Of a stretch of 64,000 nucleotides of DNA, positions 31,377 to 57,672 are shown piece by piece. How positions within the stretch are numbered: the first letter of the stretch is position 1; every line of letters starts with the position of its first letter. The notes beneath the pieces were generated by a model, which saw only the letters and a program-made list of their open reading frames with translations, was not told the origin of the DNA and searched no databases. This stretch comes from Candidatus Pyrohabitans jungbluthii. Its GTDB lineage: Archaea; Hydrothermarchaeota; Hydrothermarchaeia; Hydrothermarchaeales; BMS3B. A program made the position numbers and the translations under genes. Where the stretch lies: contig MTMD02000002.1 in assembly GCA_002010065.2 (NCBI GenBank), forward strand, positions 32,001-96,000. Direction: 5' to 3'.

Positions 31377-32579
31377 ATGGAAATTGGTGTTGTGGGCAAG
31401 CCAAACGTGGGCAAGAGCACCTTCTTCAGTGCTGCCACGCTGAGTAAGGCGGAGATAGCTAACTACCCCTTTACCACCGTTGAAGCAAACAAAGCGGTAG
31501 CCTTCGTGCGTGTTCCCGAGCCCGCGGTGGAGCTTGGAGTTACGCCAAACCCGCGCAACTCTCTCACTATGGGAGGCTATCGCTTCGTGCCCGTGGAGAT
31601 GATAGACGTCGCGGGCTTGGTGCCAAAAGCGCACGAAGGCAGAGGCTTGGGAAATAAGTTTCTGGACGACCTGCGCCAGGCGGGGGCGCTCATCCATGTC
31701 GTCGACGCCTGCGGTGCGACGGACGAGGAAGGAAATCCGCTAAAGCCAGGAGAGCACGACCCTCGCAAGGATGTGCGCTTCCTTGAGGAGGAGATTGAGC
31801 TGTGGTTCTTCGGCATATTCCAGCGAAACTGGGAGAAGCTTTCCCGCAGAGTTCAGCTCGCTGGCGAGAGCTTTGAGCACCTCTTCCAGGAGCTCTTCGC
31901 CGGCTTGGGGATACGCGAGGCACATGTGCAGCTTGCGCTCAGAGAGACAGGCTTAGACCCTAAGAAACCGGCACAGTGGAGCCAGGAGGAACTCTTCTCC
32001 TTCACCCGCACCCTGCGCAGGCTGGCGAAGCCCATAATCGTTGCTGCAAACAAGGCGGACGTTGGTATAGCCGAGGAGAACATAGCCAGACTTAAGGAGG
32101 AGTTCTCTCATACGAAGGTAATCCCCACCAGCGCAATGGCGGAGCTCATGCTGAAGAATCTTGCGGAGGCTGGGGTAATAAGCTATGTGCCCGGGGAGAG
32201 CAGCTTTGAAATTTTAAAGCCCGCTGAGCTCTCGCCCAAGCAGAAGAAGGCTCTGGAGATAATTAAAAAGAATGTGCTCGAGCGCTACGGGAGCACGGGC
32301 GTGCAGCAGGCGATTAACGTCGCTGTGTTGGACGTGCTCAGGAAGATTGTGGTTTTCCCTGTCGAAGATGAGAATCGCTACTGTGACGGCGAGGGGAATA
32401 TTTTACCGGACGCCTACCTTCTCGACGAGGGCGCCACTCCTCGCGACTTAGCGTATAAAATCCACACGGAAATAGGGGAGAATTTTATCGCCGCCATAGA
32501 TGCGCGCACCAAACGAAGAATCGCCAGCGACACACCGCTAAAACACATGGATATAATTAAGATAGTGACAAGAAAATAG
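31377..32579 (+). CDS. ychF: Redox-regulated ATPase YchF (archaeal type)
   Basis: GKPNVGKST, NYPFTT, DVAGLVPKAHEGRGLGNKFLDD, NKAD, TGS domain. Confidence 0.96.
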   Translation: MEIGVVGKPNVGKSTFFSAATLSKAEIANYPFTTVEANKAVAFVRVPEPAVELGVTPNPRNSLTMGGYRFVPVEMIDVAGLVPKAHEGRGLGNKFLDDLRQAGALIHVVDACGATDEEGNPLKPGEHDPRKDVRFLEEEIELWFFGIFQRNWEKLSRRVQLAGESFEHLFQELFAGLGIREAHVQLALRETGLDPKKPAQWSQEELFSFTRTLRRLAKPIIVAANKADVGIAEENIARLKEEFSHTKVIPTSAMAELMLKNLAEAGVISYVPGESSFEILKPAELSPKQKKALEIIKKNVLERYGSTGVQQAINVAVLDVLRKIVVFPVEDENRYCDGEGNILPDAYLLDEGATPRDLAYKIHTEIGENFIAAIDARTKRRIASDTPLKHMDIIKIVTRK

Positions 32580-49294: not shown

Positions 49295-49945
49295 CTAAAG
49301 CTCACAACTCTCTTTTGTGCAGGTGCCTGTAGCTTTGCCTGTTTCAGCTGGGGAATCGCCAAGAGCCTTTACCAGATCCTCATAGGTCTGGAGCCCGCTG
49401 AGCAGTTTACCATTGATAATAAAAGTGGGAACGGCATAAACTCCATAAGACTCTGCCAGTTTTAGATTCTCTTCGAATCTCTCTCTGGCAGTGTTTTTGA
49501 GGAAAGCATCTATCTCACTCTTGGATATTCCAAGCTCCCTCAGGTAGCCGTAAAGTCTTGCCCTATCGCTTATATCGATCCCCCTAACCCAGTAGTCCCG
49601 GTATACTCTGTCGTTAAACTCTTTGAATACTCCCCTATCCTTTGCAAGCTCCGTAAGAAGAAGGGCAAGATGTGAGTTGCTGAACCTCTCGGGGATGTTT
49701 ATTTCCACACCGAGCTGAAGTGCACGTTTTTTTATCTCACCCACAATAACATCTATATAATCCTCATCAAAACCCATCTCCAGAAGCGTCATGCCTCCTT
49801 CTGGTATTTCCGGATGAATCTCGTATCCTATCCACTCTAGCTGAACGTCATGATTCTCCACCAGCTTGTCCAGCGCCTTTTTGCTCAGATAGCAGAATGG
49901 GCAGGAGTAATCTGAAAAAACGATGACTTTGTTCATGTATTTCAC
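49295..49945 (-). CDS. DsbA/FrnE-family thiol oxidoreductase
   Basis: FSDYSCPFCY, YEIHPE, GVYAVPTFIING; C-terminal CTKESC. Confidence 0.92.
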   Translation of the reverse strand: MKYMNKVIVFSDYSCPFCYLSKKALDKLVENHDVQLEWIGYEIHPEIPEGGMTLLEMGFDEDYIDVIVGEIKKRALQLGVEINIPERFSNSHLALLLTELAKDRGVFKEFNDRVYRDYWVRGIDISDRARLYGYLRELGISKSEIDAFLKNTARERFEENLKLAESYGVYAVPTFIINGKLLSGLQTYEDLVKALGDSPAETGKATGTCTKESCEL

Positions 49946-49970
49946 CCGCGGTATGGCATCACCTAACGAG

Positions 49971-50219
49971 CTAACTTTTCTCTCTGATCTTAATTAGATA
50001 GATAAATTTCCCGTCCTCTTCACTCATATCTAAGAGCTCATTTCCAGTATGCTTAACCCACGCTGGAATGTCTTTTCTGGTGCCCAAATCAGTGGCTATG
50101 ACCTTTAGAACCTTCCCTGCTTCCATTTTGGATAATGCCTGTTTGACTCTAAAAATTGGCATGGGGCAAGCCATGCCAGAAACATCCAGCACCTCATCAG
50201 CTTCTATCAAGCCTCTCAC
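49971..50219 (-). CDS. tusA: Sulfur carrier TusA family
   Basis: LDVSGMACPMP, ATDLGTRKDIPAW. Confidence 0.93.
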   Translation of the reverse strand: MRGLIEADEVLDVSGMACPMPIFRVKQALSKMEAGKVLKVIATDLGTRKDIPAWVKHTGNELLDMSEEDGKFIYLIKIREKS

Positions 50220-50221
50220 CC

Positions 50222-50638
50222 TCAGAACGTAAGGACGACGTCTGCCTTCTGAGCCTTTTCCAGGAGGAACCAGGTTGCTCCGACGATGTCCTCAGCCTCA
50301 GGCACAAGGTTCTCCTTGGTAACGTCAAAAATCTGCGCAGCAAGGCTGCACACGTACATCCTTACCTTCCCTGTAGCCTTCAGCGCCTTGATAATCTCGT
50401 ACACGTCTGTGGGAAGCCCAGCCTCAGCCACCTTAGCCTTTATCATCTCATCGCTGCCTTCATGCTCCTTTGAGACCTTCAGATTCTCTGCACCACCTTT
50501 TGTCAGTACTCTGGCAGCCCAGTTTACGAACAGTATGTCAACCTCCATGTCAGAGGCGGCCCCGAGGTAGGCGAAAGCCAGAGGGGTCAAAATTCTATCG
50601 TATGCATCTTCCCTTACAATTATTGCCAGTCTCTTCAT
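50222..50638 (-). CDS. DsrE/DsrE2-family sulfurtransferase-like protein
   Basis: GAASDMEVDILFVNWA, MYVCSLA, IVGATWFL. Confidence 0.85.
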   Translation of the reverse strand: MKRLAIIVREDAYDRILTPLAFAYLGAASDMEVDILFVNWAARVLTKGGAENLKVSKEHEGSDEMIKAKVAEAGLPTDVYEIIKALKATGKVRMYVCSLAAQIFDVTKENLVPEAEDIVGATWFLLEKAQKADVVLTF

Positions 50639-50654
50639 ATCTTTTCCTCCTATC

Positions 50655-50670
50655 GAACGAACGTTCGTTC
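50655..50670. promoter_or_regulatory. Perfect 16-bp palindrome GAACGAACGTTCGTTC, putative TetR operator
   Basis: Self-complementary; lies just upstream of the dsrE RBS and downstream of tetR. Confidence 0.65.
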
Positions 50671-50707
50671 TATTGTAGAATAATAACCTGTGAAAAACAA
50701 CTTGAAA

Positions 50708-51286
50708 CTACCTTCTCAGCGCCCTCCAGCAGGAATCAAGAGTCTCATCCACATAATTTAAAAGGCTGTCCCGAATAACACCGTCCAGCTTTAGGGTTAT
50801 CAGCCTGATTGGAAGCCCCATTAAAGTTGCAGTTGCCAGCAGGGGGTCCATTTCCCTGATTTCCCCCTTTACAATGGCATCCGATACTATTTCCATGATA
50901 TAGTCAAATGGTTTAGAGGAACAGATAGTGCGGTTGTCCCTCAGGATTTCTCTGTGCTTTACATACAGGGCATACTCCATAATATCTGGGTACTCATCGG
51001 TAAGCCTGTAGAATACTTCAATAATCCTCCTGAATTTCTCTTTAACATCTTTTTCATCGCCGAGTGCCTCTTTCAGGTTTTTCATGAGAAACTGTACTGT
51101 ATCGTTGTAGAGGTACTCCGCAATATCTTCTTTTCCGTCAAAGTAGTGATATATCGCCCCTATGCTTAGCCCAGCCTCCCGCGAGATGTCCCGAATGGAG
51201 GTGTTAAAATACCCCTTTCTTGTGAAAAGTCTCCGGGCAGTTTTAATGATTTTACCTTTTGTTTCTGTGTCCATCTGAGACCTCAT
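50708..51286 (-). CDS. TetR/AcrR-family transcriptional regulator
   Basis: ARRLFTRKGYFNTSIRDISREAGLSIGAIYHYFDGKE. Confidence 0.96.
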   Translation of the reverse strand: MRSQMDTETKGKIIKTARRLFTRKGYFNTSIRDISREAGLSIGAIYHYFDGKEDIAEYLYNDTVQFLMKNLKEALGDEKDVKEKFRRIIEVFYRLTDEYPDIMEYALYVKHREILRDNRTICSSKPFDYIMEIVSDAIVKGEIREMDPLLATATLMGLPIRLITLKLDGVIRDSLLNYVDETLDSCWRALRR

Positions 51287-51364: not shown

Positions 51365-52264
51365 CTAGTCAATCATCCCGCCGGCACGCATCGCTCGCCG
51401 TGCTTTCTCAGCTATCTCCTCAGGCACGCGAACCTCTGGTGCGAGGTCTTCAAGGCACCACAACACCTTGGCGGCGTCGGTCAGCTTGTGGTTGCTGCAG
51501 CTTGCGCGCTCACTGGGGAAGTAGAATCGCTTTTCAGGAAACTCCCTCTCAAGGCGGTGCTTCATTCCTATCTCAGTGGCGACGATGAACTCCTCGCTGG
51601 GCGAGGCTCTGATGTGCTCCACCATTTGCTGTGTGTCAAGCACGTGGTCCGCGAGCGCAATCACGTCGCCCCTGCACTGAGGATGGACGAGCACCTCTGC
51701 ATTAGCGTGAGCCTCCTTAAGCCTTGAGACCTCACTGGCGAGAATACGCACATGGGGCGGACAGTACCCTTCAGCGATGATTAAATCTTTGCCGCTGGTG
51801 TTGCGGAGATAGCTCCCCACGTACTGGTCGGGCAGGAATATCGCCTTTTCGTTGAGTTCTGAGAGCACGCGAAGCGCTTTGCTGTGGTTGCATATGTAGT
51901 CGCACGCAGCATACTGCTCTGCCCTGGCTTTAATGTAGCCAACAACCTTCGCCTCGGGTGAGCGTTCTTTAATGCCCGCGATCTGCTCCACGCTCACCAT
52001 AGCCACCATGGGGCAGCGCGCCTCAGCGCTGGGAATGAGCACCTTCTTGTCAGGATTTAAAATCGCAATAAGCTCCGCCATGAAATCAATGCCGCACGCC
52101 ACAACCACGCTTGCATTGCTCTTCTGGGCAAAAAGGGCACATTCGAATTTATTCCCCACGAAGTCCGCTAAGTCCTGCACATCACCGGGTTGAAAATTGT
52201 GCGCCACTATTATGGCGTTGTGCTCCTCCTTGAGCTTCTCAATCCTGCGCTCAAGCTTAGCTAT
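51365..52264 (-). CDS. NadA (quinolinate synthase)-fold [4Fe-4S] protein with divergent active site
   Basis: AHNFQ, DFMAE, LNPDKKVLIP..ARCPM, GYCPPH, HPQC, ATEIGM, ASCSNHK; homology continues upstream to ATA 52264. Confidence 0.85.
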   Translation of the reverse strand: MAKLERRIEKLKEEHNAIIVAHNFQPGDVQDLADFVGNKFECALFAQKSNASVVVACGIDFMAELIAILNPDKKVLIPSAEARCPMVAMVSVEQIAGIKERSPEAKVVGYIKARAEQYAACDYICNHSKALRVLSELNEKAIFLPDQYVGSYLRNTSGKDLIIAEGYCPPHVRILASEVSRLKEAHANAEVLVHPQCRGDVIALADHVLDTQQMVEHIRASPSEEFIVATEIGMKHRLEREFPEKRFYFPSERASCSNHKLTDAAKVLWCLEDLAPEVRVPEEIAEKARRAMRAGGMID

Positions 52265-52634
52265 ACTCCTGCCCCCTGTAGTTGGCGATCGCCTTCTTCA
52301 GAGCGCGCACGCCAACTTCCTTGCAGCACCTGTTTATCTCAGGTAAGCCCCCCGCGGCGCGCTCTATATCGGCTAAGCCAAGCTCAGCCGCCTCCTTCAC
52401 GCTCTTACCCTCTGCCAGGCTTGCCAGTATTTCGCTGCTTGCTATGGCGGCGGCGCAGTTGTACGCCTGGAAGCGCGCCTCCTTTATCACGTCACCCTCA
52501 ACTTTGATGTAAAACTCCACCTCGTCGTCGCAGAGGGGGTGTACTTCTTTGCCCACGCCGCTGGCATCGCTCAGCATGCCCTCATGCCTAGCCTCGCGAA
52601 GTATTCGAGCGACCTCTTCACCCCTCAGAGGCAT
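52257..52634 (-). CDS. IscU/NifU-N-like scaffold paralog
   Basis: HPLCDD, YNCAAAIASS, GGLPEINRCC. Confidence 0.88.
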   Translation of the reverse strand: MPLRGEEVARILREARHEGMLSDASGVGKEVHPLCDDEVEFYIKVEGDVIKEARFQAYNCAAAIASSEILASLAEGKSVKEAAELGLADIERAAGGLPEINRCCKEVGVRALKKAIANYRGQEYS

Positions 52635-53025
52635 CTCCCTTCCCCGCTTTTTTCTTCTTGTAGTCCTCGATTGCTGCCTTCAAGCCATCGCTGGCGAGAA
52701 GCGAGCAGTGCATCTTTATCGGCGGGAGCCCGCCAACCGCGTCGGCGACATCCTCTTTGCTTATCTTCGCCGCCTCCTCCAGGGTTTTGCCCTTGGCAAG
52801 CTCCGTCACCATGCTACTCGTGCCTATTGCTGCGGCACAGCCAAAGGTCTCAAACTTTATGTCCTCGATTATCTCCTCGCCCTTTTCGTTCTTCCCGACT
52901 TTAATGTAGATGTACATCACGTCCCCGCACGCGGGGTTTCCCACCTTGCCCACGCCGTCGGGGTTCTCCATCCTCCCCATATTCCTGGGGTTTCTAAAGT
53001 GGTCTATCAAGGTTTTGCTATACAT
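52618..53025 (-). CDS. iscU: Fe-S cluster scaffold IscU/NifU
   Basis: YSKTLIDHFRNPRN, GNPACGD, FGCAAAI, LPPIKMHCS. Confidence 0.97.
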   Translation of the reverse strand: MYSKTLIDHFRNPRNMGRMENPDGVGKVGNPACGDVMYIYIKVGKNEKGEEIIEDIKFETFGCAAAIGTSSMVTELAKGKTLEEAAKISKEDVADAVGGLPPIKMHCSLLASDGLKAAIEDYKKKKAGKGDASEG

Positions 53026-54229
53026 GGCAGTGCTCGCCTCCTTTCCATTCTGTTCCCTCTACGTAATCCTCAAAGCTGTCCTTAAATGGCGATATATCGC
53101 GCAGGCGCTTAACCACGCGGGGCAGGACTTCAAGCAGGCGCTGCACATCTTCGCGGGTGGAAAACCTGCCAAGCGTGACGCGAAGCGAACCATGCGCCTC
53201 GGCGTGGCTCAGCCCTATCGCCGTTAAAACATGGCTCGGCTCAAGCGTTGGCGAGGAGCACGCGCTGCCTGTGCTCGCGCTTATGCCCTCGAAGTCCAGC
53301 TCCAGTATCAACCCCTCGCCCTCTATGAATGCAAAGGCGAAGTTCGCGTTGCCGGGGAGGCGCTGCTTGGGATGCCCGTTTAAGCGGGTGCGCGGTATCT
53401 TCAGCACCTCCTTAATAAGCTCGTCTCGAAGTTTTGTCAGGCGCTCCGTTTCGTCCTTCATCTCTTTCTTCGCTATCTCCGCTGCCTTGCCAAAGCCAAC
53501 TATGCCGGGGACGTTCTCAGTGCCGGAGCGCAGCTTTCTCTCCTGCCCGCCTCCATGAAACAGGGGCTCAAGTCTTGTGCCCCTAGCTACGAAGAGGGCG
53601 CCTATGCCCTTGGGACCATACATCTTGTGTGCACTCATGGCGAGCATGTCCACGCCAAGCTCTTCAACGTCTATCGCCACCTGACCGTTGCTTATGCACG
53701 CGTCGCTGAAGAAGGCAACGCCCTTATCCTGCGCCACCTCCGCAAGCTCCTTTATGGGCTCTATTGTACCTATCTCGTTGTTTGCGTGGTTGATTATGGC
53801 TAAGATGGTATCGCTGTTAATTGCATCCTCCAGCGTCTCGGGCTTAACGAGACCATATTCGTCCACATCTAGGTAAGAAACCTCAAACCCCTGCTTCTCG
53901 AGCCAACGGCACGCCTCAAGCACAGCAAAGTGCTCTATCTTGGAAACAACTATATGCTTTCCCTTGTTCTTATTCTTCAGCGCAAACCCCTTTATGGCAA
54001 GGTTGCACGCCTCTGTGCCGCCAGAGGTGAAGATTATCTCCTCGGGCGAGGCGTTTATCAGCTCAGCAACCTTAGCTCGAGCCTCCTCTACGGCTGCCTT
54101 TGCCTCCTGCCCAAATGAGTAAAAGCTGGTTGGGTTGCCGTACTTCTCAGTGAAGTAGGGCAGCATCGCCTCAACCACGCGTTCGTCCACCGGCGTAGTC
54201 GAGGCGTAGTCGAGGTACACTCTCCTCAT
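53018..54229 (-). CDS. iscS: Cysteine desulfurase IscS/NifS
   Basis: YLDYASTTP, FTSGGTE, NNEIGT, SAHKMYGPKG, RSGTEN, STGSACSS. Confidence 0.96.
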   Translation of the reverse strand: MRRVYLDYASTTPVDERVVEAMLPYFTEKYGNPTSFYSFGQEAKAAVEEARAKVAELINASPEEIIFTSGGTEACNLAIKGFALKNKNKGKHIVVSKIEHFAVLEACRWLEKQGFEVSYLDVDEYGLVKPETLEDAINSDTILAIINHANNEIGTIEPIKELAEVAQDKGVAFFSDACISNGQVAIDVEELGVDMLAMSAHKMYGPKGIGALFVARGTRLEPLFHGGGQERKLRSGTENVPGIVGFGKAAEIAKKEMKDETERLTKLRDELIKEVLKIPRTRLNGHPKQRLPGNANFAFAFIEGEGLILELDFEGISASTGSACSSPTLEPSHVLTAIGLSHAEAHGSLRVTLGRFSTREDVQRLLEVLPRVVKRLRDISPFKDSFEDYVEGTEWKGGEHCHV

Positions 54230-54230
54230 C

Positions 54231-54461
54231 TTAAACTTTCCTCCTTATGTACGCTTTTATTATCCCGCCTTCTCGCGCATAGCCAAGATACTCGTTCCCG
54301 GTTACACGGCACCAGGCAGGGAGGTCTTCAATTATATCTTCGTCGTCTGCAACTATCTCCAGAACTTCCCCGACGGCAAGCTTTTGCAAAGCTTCGCCAG
54401 CCTTTGCGAGAGGCACAGGGCAGTGCATACCCACGCAGTCCACGCTGAGCTTTGCCTTCAT
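54231..54461 (-). CDS. tusA: Sulfur carrier TusA family
   Basis: VDCVGMHCPVP, DLPAWCRVTGN. Confidence 0.92.
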   Translation of the reverse strand: MKAKLSVDCVGMHCPVPLAKAGEALQKLAVGEVLEIVADDEDIIEDLPAWCRVTGNEYLGYAREGGIIKAYIRRKV

Positions 54462-55594
54462 CTCTCCCGCAACCTGTTTATAACCTCCCCCGCCTCCTGC
54501 GCAACCCGCGCTACGTCTGCCTCGCTCGTGGGGATGCCGAAGGAGAAGAGCATGGCACCGCGGATTAGCTCCTGGGATAAGCCCATCGCCGCAAGCACGT
54601 GGCTCGCCTTCGCTGCTCGAGCCATGCAGGGCGAACCCGAGGTTATGTATATTCCTCGTGAGCTGAGCTCAGCCACGACAGCCTCGCCCTCTACCCCAGG
54701 GACGCTAATGTGCACATACATGGGGTTAACTTCGCTCGGGTGCCCGTTTATCTTGGCTTCGGGCACCTCACGGCGCAGCGCCTCTATAAACTTGCTCCTC
54801 AGCGTGCGCAGCTTCTCTAGGCGCTGCGACATCTCCCTCTCAGCCAGCTCTGCTGCCTTTCCCATGCCCACTATTCCTGCGACGTTTTCGGTGCCCGCTC
54901 TGTAACCGCGCTCTTGTATGCCGCCCTCTATCTGGGGCAGAAGCCTTACTCCACGAGCTAAATAAAGCGCTCCCACACCCTTAGGGCCATAGAAGCGGTG
55001 CGCCGAAAGGGTGTAGATATCTACGCCCAGCTCTTCCACCTTAGCGGGCACTATGCCAGCGGCGCTGACGCCGTCGCAGTGAAATGTTATCCCCCGCTCC
55101 TCGGCGATTTCGGCAATCTCCTTAATCGGCTGGAGGGTGCCCACCTCGTGGTTGGCGTGCTGCACAGAGATTAAAATCGTGTCGTCGCGAATCGCCTTCT
55201 CAAGCTCCTCCACGTTAACGCGGCCGTGCTCGTCAACGCCCACGCGGGTAACCTGCACCCCCTCGCGGGCTAAGCTCTGGAGCGGATGCATTATGGAGTA
55301 GTGCTCCACCGCAGAGATAACCACATGCCTCCCCCTCGCCTTATTAGCCTGAATCACGCCTTTAATCGCTAAGTTGTTTGCCTCCGCCCCGCCGGAGGTG
55401 AAGACTATCTCCTCGCTCCTCGCCCCCAAAAGCTGGGCTACCTTCTCCCTTGCCCCCTCCACAGCGCGCCTCGCTTTGAGCGCAAAGTCGTGCAGATTGG
55501 AGGGGTTCGCGTAGAGCTCGTCGAAGTACGGAAGCATCTCCTGCTTTACCTCTTGCAGCACAGGAGTAGAAGAGGCGTAGTCTGCGTAAATCAT
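54458..55594 (-). CDS. IscS-like protein lacking the PLP Schiff-base lysine
   Basis: YADYASSTP, FTSGGAEANN, SAHRFYGPKG, RAGTEN, TSGSPC; ATG 55594 after GAGGAG. Confidence 0.92.
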   Translation of the reverse strand: MIYADYASSTPVLQEVKQEMLPYFDELYANPSNLHDFALKARRAVEGAREKVAQLLGARSEEIVFTSGGAEANNLAIKGVIQANKARGRHVVISAVEHYSIMHPLQSLAREGVQVTRVGVDEHGRVNVEELEKAIRDDTILISVQHANHEVGTLQPIKEIAEIAEERGITFHCDGVSAAGIVPAKVEELGVDIYTLSAHRFYGPKGVGALYLARGVRLLPQIEGGIQERGYRAGTENVAGIVGMGKAAELAEREMSQRLEKLRTLRSKFIEALRREVPEAKINGHPSEVNPMYVHISVPGVEGEAVVAELSSRGIYITSGSPCMARAAKASHVLAAMGLSQELIRGAMLFSFGIPTSEADVARVAQEAGEVINRLRER

Positions 55595-55677
55595 TCTCCT
55601 CGCCTGAATAACGCTGCTCCTTCCCATCGCAAAATTGTTTGGAAAGGTTTAAGCAGCTTTAGTCAACATTCTGGTGC

Positions 55678-56493
55678 ATGCTCTACCTTATCCTCGCCTC
55701 ATTGATATGGGGAACCACGCCCATAGTGGCGAAGCTTGCGTATGCTCAGGGCATCTCACCCTTGGCGCTGGTCGAGGTGAGGCTTGTCGTGGGCGCGCTC
55801 CTCTTCGCCTTTTATCTCCGCAGCTTTCGCATGGAGCACCTCCTCAGTAAAGAGCTCCTCGCCCTCGCGCTTTTAGGCTTAGCCGCCAACTTCCTCTTCT
55901 ACCACTTGGCTGTGAAGCACACCTCTGCGGCGGCGGCGCAGGTGCTGGAAAGCACCTCCGTAGCCTTCGCTGCTCTCTTCGCCTACCTTCTGCGGGAGGA
56001 GAGGCTGAGCCAGCGCAAGCTCCTCGCCATAACCGCGAGCTTAGCAGGCTCAGCGCTTATATTCTACTCCCACGCCTCTGGTAGTAACCTGTTTGGCGAC
56101 ACCCTTGCAATTCTGGCGGCGCTAACCTGGGCGCTCTTCACTGTGCTTGCCTCACGTTTGCTTGCCTCGCTTCGCGAGGAGGAAGTGCTCCTGCTTGTCT
56201 TTACTATAGCTGCGCTCGCGTTGCTACCCTTCGCCGCAGCTTCGCCAGTGATAACCCTGAACGGCGCTTTGATTGCGTTTGCCATGGGGGCTGTGCACAC
56301 CTTCCTTGCCTACCTTCTCTACTTTCGGGGCATCGCGAGGGCGAAGGCTATTGCAGCTAGCATAGCTTTTGCTCTTTCGCCTGTGGTTGCGATAGCACTT
56401 TCTGCGCTACTCCTGCATGAGATGCTCACTCCAGCGTTTTACGCGGGCGCTGCTCTGATCATAGGCGGCATCCTCGTGGCAAGGGCGAGATAG
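55678..56493 (+). CDS. DMT/EamA-family transporter
   Basis: LIWGT, two EamA repeats, LREERL, HTFLAYLLY. Confidence 0.93.
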   Translation: MLYLILASLIWGTTPIVAKLAYAQGISPLALVEVRLVVGALLFAFYLRSFRMEHLLSKELLALALLGLAANFLFYHLAVKHTSAAAAQVLESTSVAFAALFAYLLREERLSQRKLLAITASLAGSALIFYSHASGSNLFGDTLAILAALTWALFTVLASRLLASLREEEVLLLVFTIAALALLPFAAASPVITLNGALIAFAMGAVHTFLAYLLYFRGIARAKAIAASIAFALSPVVAIALSALLLHEMLTPAFYAGAALIIGGILVARAR

Positions 56494-56526: not shown

Positions 56527-57672
56527 ATGGAGATAATCACCACCTTCCCCCGCGGTCTGCGCTACGCGTGCACACTCGAGAGCTGCTTCACCTGCTGCTC
56601 CCTCTTCGAGGACATCCCGGTTACCATCGAGGAGATAAAGCGGGTGAAGGCGCTGGGGTATAAGGATTTTTACGAGGCACGGAGCGGGCGATACTTCATA
56701 AAGAAGCCCTGCACCTTCCTTGAAGACAAGCTGTGCTCTCTTCACAGGGAGCACGGCAAAGCCAAGAAGTTCATGACCTGCCGCAAGTATCCTTTCTCGG
56801 CGAGCGTGCTTGACAACGGGAGCGTAATCGTCGACGTGAAGTGGACATGCCCTGGCGTGGGGTTTGAGGGTGGAGAGGAGATAACCGAGGCGCTGCTTAG
56901 AGAAGAGTTTCTGGAAGACCTTCTCAAAGGCGGAGCAGAGGAGATAAAGCGAGGCGAGGTGGTTTACCTGCACAGCCCGAGCGGGCAGCGCATCCCGTGG
57001 GGAGCGCTTGTGAAGCTTCACTCAGGCATAGCCGAAGCCCTTGCTGGGGAGGGATTCTACGATACCCTGCTTTTGCTCACCGCTGCGGTGCGCCACCTGG
57101 GCAGCAACCTGGGTGGGAAGAGCTTTGTCTCCGAAAGCGACGCTGCCTCAGCCCTGGAAAGCTTCGAGGCGCGGTATCGCCAGGAGAGGGAGGCGTTGCT
57201 CCGCGAAGTAAAGGCGCAGGCACAGGTGGCGGTGGATATCCTTACAATATACGACTATTTTGATGAACTCTTTGAGTACGAGATTAACCCTGGCTACGCG
57301 GCGAAGAAACTGGGTATAGCAGAGGAGCTGGAGTTCGACGAGGACTTCGCCCGGCTCTTCTCCAAGCCTATATCCGCTGAAGCTCAGCGCTTGCTTGCCA
57401 TGCACACCAGGCAGAGCTTCATGGAGACTTTAGCAAGACCTTGGGATTTGCCCTCAGCCTACTTCTGGACCCTGGGCGTGGCCTGCGTCGCCGACTACTT
57501 AGCAAGGCTGCTTTCAAGCGATGAGGTTACCCGCGACGACGCGCGAAAGGCGCTCAGCATAGTGGACTTCCTCAACAAGCACTTCCGCTCCTTCCGCGAT
57601 TACTACTTCCCCCGCTACCCGGAGCTGGGAATGCAGTACCTGCAATTCCTGCTGGGTGGGGTGCTTGAATAG
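56527..57672 (+). CDS. YkgJ-family cysteine-cluster protein with helical C-terminal domain
   Basis: CTLESCFTCC, PCTFL..LCSLH, TCRKYPF, CPG. Confidence 0.85.
   Translation: MEIITTFPRGLRYACTLESCFTCCSLFEDIPVTIEEIKRVKALGYKDFYEARSGRYFIKKPCTFLEDKLCSLHREHGKAKKFMTCRKYPFSASVLDNGSVIVDVKWTCPGVGFEGGEEITEALLREEFLEDLLKGGAEEIKRGEVVYLHSPSGQRIPWGALVKLHSGIAEALAGEGFYDTLLLLTAAVRHLGSNLGGKSFVSESDAASALESFEARYRQEREALLREVKAQAQVAVDILTIYDYFDELFEYEINPGYAAKKLGIAEELEFDEDFARLFSKPISAEAQRLLAMHTRQSFMETLARPWDLPSAYFWTLGVACVADYLARLLSSDEVTRDDARKALSIVDFLNKHFRSFRDYYFPRYPELGMQYLQFLLGGVLE

Follow-up and report, generated by a model that had tools for sequence, protein, structure and literature searches.

The last gene of an iron-sulfur (Fe-S) cluster operon in Candidatus Pyrohabitans jungbluthii, designated nadA* here, was found by sequence and by predicted structure to encode a protein that belongs structurally to the NadA family, and the altered pocket makes it very unlikely that this protein is a quinolinate synthase. 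The explanation that we favor, although only tentatively, is that NadA* would be a non-catalytic holder or relay of a [4Fe-4S] cluster, a pseudo-enzyme derived from NadA that serves a minimal IscS/IscU system and in which Lys111 caps the open iron. All coordinates refer to the window, that is, the whole stretch of 64,000 nucleotides that was analyzed (positions 32,001 to 96,000 of contig MTMD02000002.1), and residues are given in the numbering of Pyrococcus horikoshii NadA unless stated otherwise.

The nadA* frame is uninterrupted over 299 codons and a stop (Table 1). Pfam NadA PF02445 was its sole Pfam match (E=1.4e-91, 307 bits against a cut-off of 27), none of the domains that define established Fe-S carriers (A-type, Nfu, Mrp) was matched, and the predicted structure (pLDDT 95.8) has the three-domain NadA fold, with TM values of 0.92-0.95 between this model and solved NadA structures. 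A search of the ESM Atlas returned NadA clusters only, and a plasmid search gave matches no better than the level of ordinary NadA. The protein passed the cut-off of NCBIfam NF006878 (321.8 vs 294) and narrowly missed that of TIGR00550 (262.1 vs 262.9), two curated models on which the intact NadA of the host genome (G000) scored 396 and 360. Database relatives of nadA* carry the label "quinolinate synthase", and we flag this public naming, to which one curated HMM lends itself by accepting such proteins, as a mis-annotation.

Table 1. Features of nadA* and its surroundings in the window. Residue names follow the numbering of the nadA* product; NadA equivalents are in brackets.
Feature	Position	Strand	Remarks
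tetR-dsrE-tusA-dsbA run	49295-51286	-	directly after nadA*
nadA*, NadA-fold K111 paralog	51365-52264	-	299 aa, probable ATA start
H259 (NadA M259>H)	51488-51490	-	
C256, predicted cluster ligand 3	51497-51499	-	
Q196 (NadA E198>Q)	51677-51679	-	
C168, cluster ligand 2 (NadA C170)	51761-51763	-	CPPH motif; predicted from alignment
K112 (NadA N111>K)	51929-51931	-	clade signature; would cap the open iron
C84, cluster ligand 1 (NadA C83)	52013-52015	-	predicted from alignment
K39 (NadA S38>K)	52148-52150	-	fixed in type A subgroup
F24 (NadA Y23>F)	52193-52195	-	
Probable AUA start codon of nadA*	52262-52264	-	overlaps iscU2 end (stop at 52257-52259)
G-rich Shine-Dalgarno-like run	52272-52277	-	ahead of nadA*
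iscU2 (iscU*), divergent IscU	52257-52634	-	three Cys and Asp kept; without YS.K N-terminus
iscU1, intact IscU/MisU scaffold	52618-53025	-	
iscS1, cysteine desulfurase	53018-54229	-	PLP Lys, catalytic Cys, Arg; TIGR03402 cut-off passed
tusA-like sulfur carrier	54231-54461	-	
iscS2 (iscS*), desulfurase look-alike	54458-55627	-	PLP Lys and substrate Arg lost, loop Cys kept
CxxCxxCC protein (and, in genus g1, EamA transporter)	56527-57672 and 55678-56493	+	divergent from iscS2

Translation of nadA* probably starts at an AUA codon, to judge from the arrangement of the genes. There is an 8-nt overlap between this end of nadA* and the end of iscU2, and the earliest standard start is a GTG at residue 20, use of which would remove helix 1. 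The start position was occupied by ATA, again overlapping the iscU2 stop, in 7/7 sequences from two genera, and by an ATG lying directly after that stop in the 4/4 sequences of a third genus. Since ATA accounts for 47% of the Ile codons in the host genome, we do no more than infer the AUA start. A programmed frameshift joining IscU2 to nadA* was considered and is disfavored relative to an AUA start because in one genus nadA* has an ATG of its own here. Initiation at AUA would leave nadA* less abundant than the scaffolds.

Residues were compared in phmmer alignments to the Pyrococcus NadA chains 4hhe, 6ora, and 5ktm. The residues that the original prediction had listed as kept were all matched in these alignments (H21, M61, C83, Y109, C170, H173, H196, T213, and C256, corresponding to H22, M62, C84, Y110, C168, H171, H194, T211, and C256 in the numbering of nadA* itself), as were all the motif changes that it had listed (HNY>HNF, GDS>GNK, YVN>YIK, TS>NH, HPEC>HPQC, ST>DT, and CxxM>CSNH). 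Position by position, the substitutions are Y23F, D37N, S38K, A86V, N111K, T125N, S126H, E198Q, S212D, and M259H; the changes at D37 and A86 and the loss of the entire T125-S126-x-N128 motif go beyond the earlier list. Several of the changes coincide with sites that have been mutated in laboratory variants deposited in the PDB, as named by the entry titles (Y21F in 5lqm, S124A in 7p4q, and A84L in 7p4p), and HPQC is also present in chain 6ora. In NadA, according to the available parts of two articles, three cysteines hold a cluster with an open iron (PMC11117964, PMC7725820).

The comparison pool, whose composition is biased towards relatives of nadA*, comprised 543 aligned proteins, 499 of them near full length (455 with N111, 40 with K111, and 4 others); dropping identical rows left 451 distinct N111 NadAs and 35 distinct K111 proteins. 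Y23, D37, and S38 were each retained in 446 of these 451 NadAs, S126 in 444, E198 in 448, and M259 in 441, so that Y23, S38, S126, E198, and M259 are 98-100% fixed in a set that is itself defined by N111. The least constrained position was S212, kept in 90% of 180 thinned sequences, and K was found at position 111 in 40/44 rows without N111. The original prediction had allowed that the altered residues might vary among true NadAs, an objection that these counts do not uphold. On this comparison, the residue changes of nadA* are far beyond ordinary NadA variation. Y23F and E198Q reportedly each abolish the activity of P. horikoshii NadA, in which we take N111 to adjoin the open iron of the cluster.

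Conservation within the K111 clade was assessed on 21 K111 rows thinned to 90%, two Armatimonadota fusions among them. C83, C170, and C256 were retained in 35/35 distinct K111 proteins (a group defined by K111), and the only residues at the cluster that were fixed across the thinned rows were the three Cys and K111. H21, H173, H196, and M61 were each kept in 19-20 of the 21 rows, position 23 was F in 17, D37 and S38 were lost, the T125-S126-x-N128 motif was unconstrained, and the E198 position held Q in 14 rows, E in 5, and H in 2. Position 38 was K, T, I, E, or L across the clade, and H196 was replaced by G or S in two rows. Two subgroups were distinguished. In type A, to which the host protein belongs, F23, K38, K111, Q198, and H259 are fixed and their codons vary synonymously in 9/9 loci, whereas type B mostly has T38, E198, and M259; the pocket is broken in the basal rows P0123 (E38/F109/G196) and G011 (R173/S196).

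These results limit the systematic rewiring of the active site that had been proposed. It stands for the residues fixed in type A, but S126H (5/21) and S212D (8/21) are not conserved in the clade and are thus not part of any systematic rewiring. The more basic pocket holds for type A and not for a clade in which positions 38 and 198 are loose, and the family-wide core consists, on these alignments, of the cluster residues and K111. The persistence of a site-differentiated [4Fe-4S] cluster, also expected originally, agrees with the invariant cysteines; however, the open iron may be capped by K111, and the term "site-differentiated" cannot be applied safely. Other NadA-fold proteins with a degenerate pocket and three Cys were observed across the tree (P0133, P0129, P0196, P0222, P0255, P0262, P0264, and P0270), and NadA pseudo-enzymes seem to arise repeatedly. 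A far more divergent NadA-fold protein of 355 aa, with three Cys, N111, and GGT and HGEN motifs, was seen in G025 (L044:7435-8499), between DUF7714 on one side and an aldehyde:ferredoxin oxidoreductase gene on the other.

K111 proteins were found in 12/38 Hydrothermarchaeota genomes and in 9/11 genomes of the host family; in one of the two K111-negative genomes of this family iscU2 runs off the contig end, and the other is without an assembled iscU. When 18 pocket columns were masked, 18 K111 rows formed one clade (100/98 in IQ-TREE; FastTree support 0.98) that was not sister to the intact NadA of the host and whose closest intact relatives were, weakly (89/87), of Chloroflexota type. A recent duplication of the host nadA was ruled out as the source of nadA*, the host NadA grouping apart. 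Three K111 lineages lay outside the clade (P0128/P0274, P0202, and P0215), and N111K, which is reachable by one base change, thus arose more than once. An exact search for the pattern CPPH-22-HPQCR over GTDB gave 12 matches, 6 NadA-like, all archaeal MAGs, and 6 of 33 matches in a metagenome pattern search were K111. At a strict E cut-off, no K111 was found among the best-scoring matches read from 121 archaeal genomes (3/3 matches) and from 401 Chloroflexota genomes (15 best of 20 matches), and 301 other archaeal genomes gave 0 matches. This kind of paralog is narrow in range. The dN/dS values were 0.09-0.32 in 9/9 K111 gene pairs, and the nadA* matches from 12 genomes, at ~50% identity across genera, contained no stops or frameshifts. 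The K111 clade genes are under purifying selection, and a pseudogene or sequencing artefact was rejected on the basis of dN/dS and the intact frames.

The gene terminates a compact operon with the order iscS*-tusA-iscS-iscU-iscU*-nadA*. In IscU2, NRCC replaces the K-M-H-C motif, a change conserved in the host family; tandem second IscUs were also observed at L118-L120. The PLP-Lys position of IscS2 is Arg in 7 and His in 2 of 9 rows, and a third IscS-like gene of the host genome (C8:42888-44334), with a tusA-like gene before it, has Thr at this position, so that IscS1 alone of the three looks active. By gene content, an IscS-like desulfurase and a single-domain IscU with no SUF, the operon fits the MIS type. 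SufB/D was not found in G000 (99.95% complete) and was present in 1/38 genomes of the phylum. The two IscU genes of G000 both lie in the nadA* operon, which is the only Fe-S cluster-building operon found in this genome; an A-type carrier and Mrp/ApbC are present there, and Nfu was not found.

Type A genes come after iscS-iscU in 10/10 carrier genomes (two of them split over contig ends), the operon of G011 being a short form, iscS-iscU-nadA*. None of the three type B loci is in an isc operon: two of the genes (L040 and L090) are divergent beside dsrAB, and the third adjoins cupredoxin genes. The iscS-iscU context, of which the original prediction had made no use, points to Fe-S or sulfur handling by nadA*. 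The tetR-dsrE-tusA-dsbA run that follows nadA* in the window recurs after it in genus g2 (L036, L037, L042, and L089); it does not follow nadA* in G002 and G004, which are more closely related to the host, and this distribution suggests an exchange between genera. Genera g1 and g3 both retain the CxxCxxCC protein upstream of the operon.

The host genome has a separate intact nadA, 40% identical to nadA* and located near nadC and an aspartate dehydrogenase gene, and an intact nadA was found in 9/12 K111 carrier genomes. In the other three, G005 (98% complete), G010 (62%), and G011 (88%), nadC is present but an intact nadA was not found. The G005 contig breaks in a transposase-like gene; in the related G007 the next gene at this point is nadA, and the break may explain the missing gene. 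Two intact-looking nadA copies ~2 kb apart were observed in G019 (C3:31646-34513).

Of 20 further iscU loci in the phylum, which come from 19 genomes and in several cases lie close to a contig end, none contained a nadA-like gene, and MIS thus does not require nadA*. In these loci, the gene after iscU coded for a TrxR-like flavoprotein (5), SepCysS (3), QueC (2), or another product. Several operons of the form tusA-iscS-iscU(-trxR) (L121, L122, L123, and L125) have an IscS that gave no match to the usual H-K PLP motif, and that of L121 has Asp at the PLP-lysine position, as in A. fulgidus. Among the Chloroflexota, in 2/15 nadA loci fetched nadA was intact, was the sole copy in its genome, and had iscU and a Lys-less iscS as neighbors, in the orders iscS-nadA-iscS*-iscU-dsrE-like (G577) and nadA-iscS*-iscU..tusA-like (G604), where the dsrE- and tusA-like labels come from sequence likeness and not from a family scan. 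The Lys-less IscS proteins of these cassettes (L157 and L158) grouped with the host IscS2 in a quick tree. The presence of intact NadA in such cassettes indicates that the neighborhood of nadA* may be inherited. The likeliest history, in our view, would have a nadA-iscS-iscU cassette arriving in a lineage with a nadA of its own, where the spare NadA lost catalysis yet was kept.

In the Armatimonadota, P0211 and P0275 join an intact-looking IscS to a K111 domain that has lost nearly all of the pocket; these fusions were sister to the K111 clade at 0.90 in FastTree and placed elsewhere at 99/95 in IQ-TREE (AU p=0.19). Fusion to IscS was considered as proof of a K111-IscS partnership, an argument that is weakened since IscS is also fused to intact NadA (P0353 and P0355). 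Intact NadA was further seen fused to aldo-keto reductase-Fe-S (P0285/P0303/P0342), BioB-like radical SAM (P0383), FdhD (P0127), and HPPK domains (P0276 and others).

If nadA* indeed holds or relays a cluster, one [4Fe-4S] cluster would be bound on C84, C168, and C256 of the protein, and K112 would reach the fourth iron or its ligand and, with K39 and H259, would close and charge the former substrate cavity. Sulfur would come directly from IscS, as is reported for Bacillus NadA from NifS, or clusters from IscU1/IscU2; nadA* would then serve as a store, for the cluster itself or for its sulfide-loaded state, and would supply client proteins from it. This reading draws on the kept cysteines, the lost acid/base residues, the iron-proximal Lys, the long retention in tight coupling to the scaffolds, and the NifS-NadA report. 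It is consistent with the fixation of the cluster Cys and K111 while catalytic and substrate residues drift, with the neighbors IscS2 and IscU2, which are likewise degenerate but conserved, and with the Armatimonadota IscS-K111 fusions. On the other hand, the isc context is older than the rewiring, as the cassettes and fusions with intact NadA indicate, the host already has an A-type carrier and Mrp/ApbC, and type B members lie outside the isc operon. The new basic residues fixed in type A and the retention of H21, H173, and H196 also fit a ligand site. Moreover, the cluster of NadA lies within a cleft and is less exposed than in known carriers.

Such a ligand site is central to an alternative that we consider unlikely but keep in view, a sulfur-anion enzyme or sulfur relay. 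In it, a positively charged pocket (H21, K38, K111, H173, H196, and H259) would, together with the open iron, take up sulfide, persulfide, sulfite, or thiosulfate and convert the ligand for IscU/TusA, for example via a [4Fe-5S] form. The fixation of the new basic residues in type A despite synonymous codon variation, the loss of both pocket acids (D37 and E198), tusA within the operon and dsrE/tusA downstream of it, and the two type B genes beside dsrAB all speak for a sulfur anion; however, most type B rows, those beside dsrAB included, are without K38, Q198, and H259, the basal rows have a broken pocket, and the third type B locus has cupredoxin genes as neighbors. It is distinctly improbable that nadA* is a new enzyme for an unrelated anionic metabolite, catalyzing, for example, a condensation or elimination with K111 or K38 as Schiff-base or charge partner and owing its place in the operon to inheritance as an IscS/IscU client. 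Intact NadA already occurs in such cassettes, and the slot after iscU elsewhere in the phylum holds likely clients or partners (SepCysS 3/20, QueC 2/20, TrxR-like flavoprotein 5/20), but the general acid/base is gone (Y23F, E198Q), downstream there is no conserved pathway gene but six different neighbors, and the pocket is loose across the clade. The enzyme for a different anionic substrate that the original prediction had put forward was, for the same loss of the proton-handling Y23 and E198 and the same looseness, not borne out.

We give little credence to a cluster-status sensor or electron-transfer partner, whose capped cluster would report Fe-S supply or give electrons for persulfide reduction: the TrxR-like flavoprotein in the equivalent slot of 5/20 other loci, the probable AUA start, and the lack of a known MIS electron donor in the available part of PMC13066941 would suit it, but no DNA-binding or additional domain was found in nadA*. 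A protein that still makes quinolinate by means of compensating changes would pass NF006878, as nadA* does, and would be expected where nadC is present and intact nadA was not found, as in 3/12 carriers (G005, G010, and G011). This is nevertheless very hard to sustain, as six near-invariant residues are altered together, two of the changes are each said to abolish activity, 9/12 carriers have an intact nadA, and the G005 contig breaks where nadA is expected from G007. A decaying spare copy without function is scarcely credible at all: catalytic residues and a standard start codon are indeed missing, but the low dN/dS, the intact frames in 12 genomes, the retention across genera, and the confidently predicted fold all oppose it.

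A cluster-holding accessory thus remains the reading that we prefer. Its broader form, which we regard as possible but rather doubtful, is that evolution has turned the NadA fold, perhaps more than once, into a new [4Fe-4S] scaffold or carrier with three Cys and Lys as ligands, which in these archaea completes a minimal Fe-S machine of three pseudo-enzymes (IscS*, IscU*, and NadA*) around one active IscS-IscU pair. If this is true, a client enzyme became part of its own assembly line. No Fe-S system besides the nadA* operon was found in the near-complete host genome, and the operon bears on the carriers of the little-studied MIS. A NadA paralog of this kind was not described in the literature searched, which covered few subscription journals, and no NadA-fold function other than quinolinate synthesis was found there; the available parts of PMC9981529 and PMC8207962 contain nothing on such a paralog.

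Among known systems, quinolinate synthase NadA (PF02445, TIGR00550, NF006878; P. horikoshii 5ktm/5ktn/4zk6/6ora, T. maritima 4p3x) shares with nadA* the fold, ~40% identity, the three Cys, and H21/M61/Y109/H173/H196/T213. In contrast to this enzyme, nadA* has the substitutions listed above, is not linked to nadC/nadX, and resides in a genome with a second, intact nadA of a different lineage. Plant SufE3/QS is a fusion of SufE and NadA, so that its NadA domain is tied to sulfur-mobilizing machinery, as nadA* is; that domain is active. In B. subtilis, NifS is reported to give sulfur directly to NadA, presumably for in-place cluster assembly (Jones et al. 2026, as described in the available part of PMC13066941). 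The likeness lies in a desulfurase encoded beside a NadA-fold protein and in the proposed direct delivery of sulfur, but the B. subtilis NadA is an active end user, whereas nadA* is not expected to make quinolinate and is accompanied by IscU scaffolds.

The MIS system (MisS-MisU) and the IscS-IscU pairs of Archaeoglobus fulgidus and Methanosarcina, as far as they are described in the available part of PMC7585200, share with the host operon the IscS and IscU core, an IscS that has lost the Lys but not the Cys, and an operon in which no chaperones were seen; TusA, a divergent second IscU, and nadA* are additional in the host operon. The accessible part of PMC13066941 describes MIS as the least studied of the Fe-S systems and as one with no known carrier or electron donor. 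Finally, the Fe-S carriers of the A-type (PF01521), Nfu (PF01106), and Mrp/ApbC (PF10609) families resemble nadA* in the proposed role only, nadA* being a monomeric three-domain fold in which the three Cys come from one chain.
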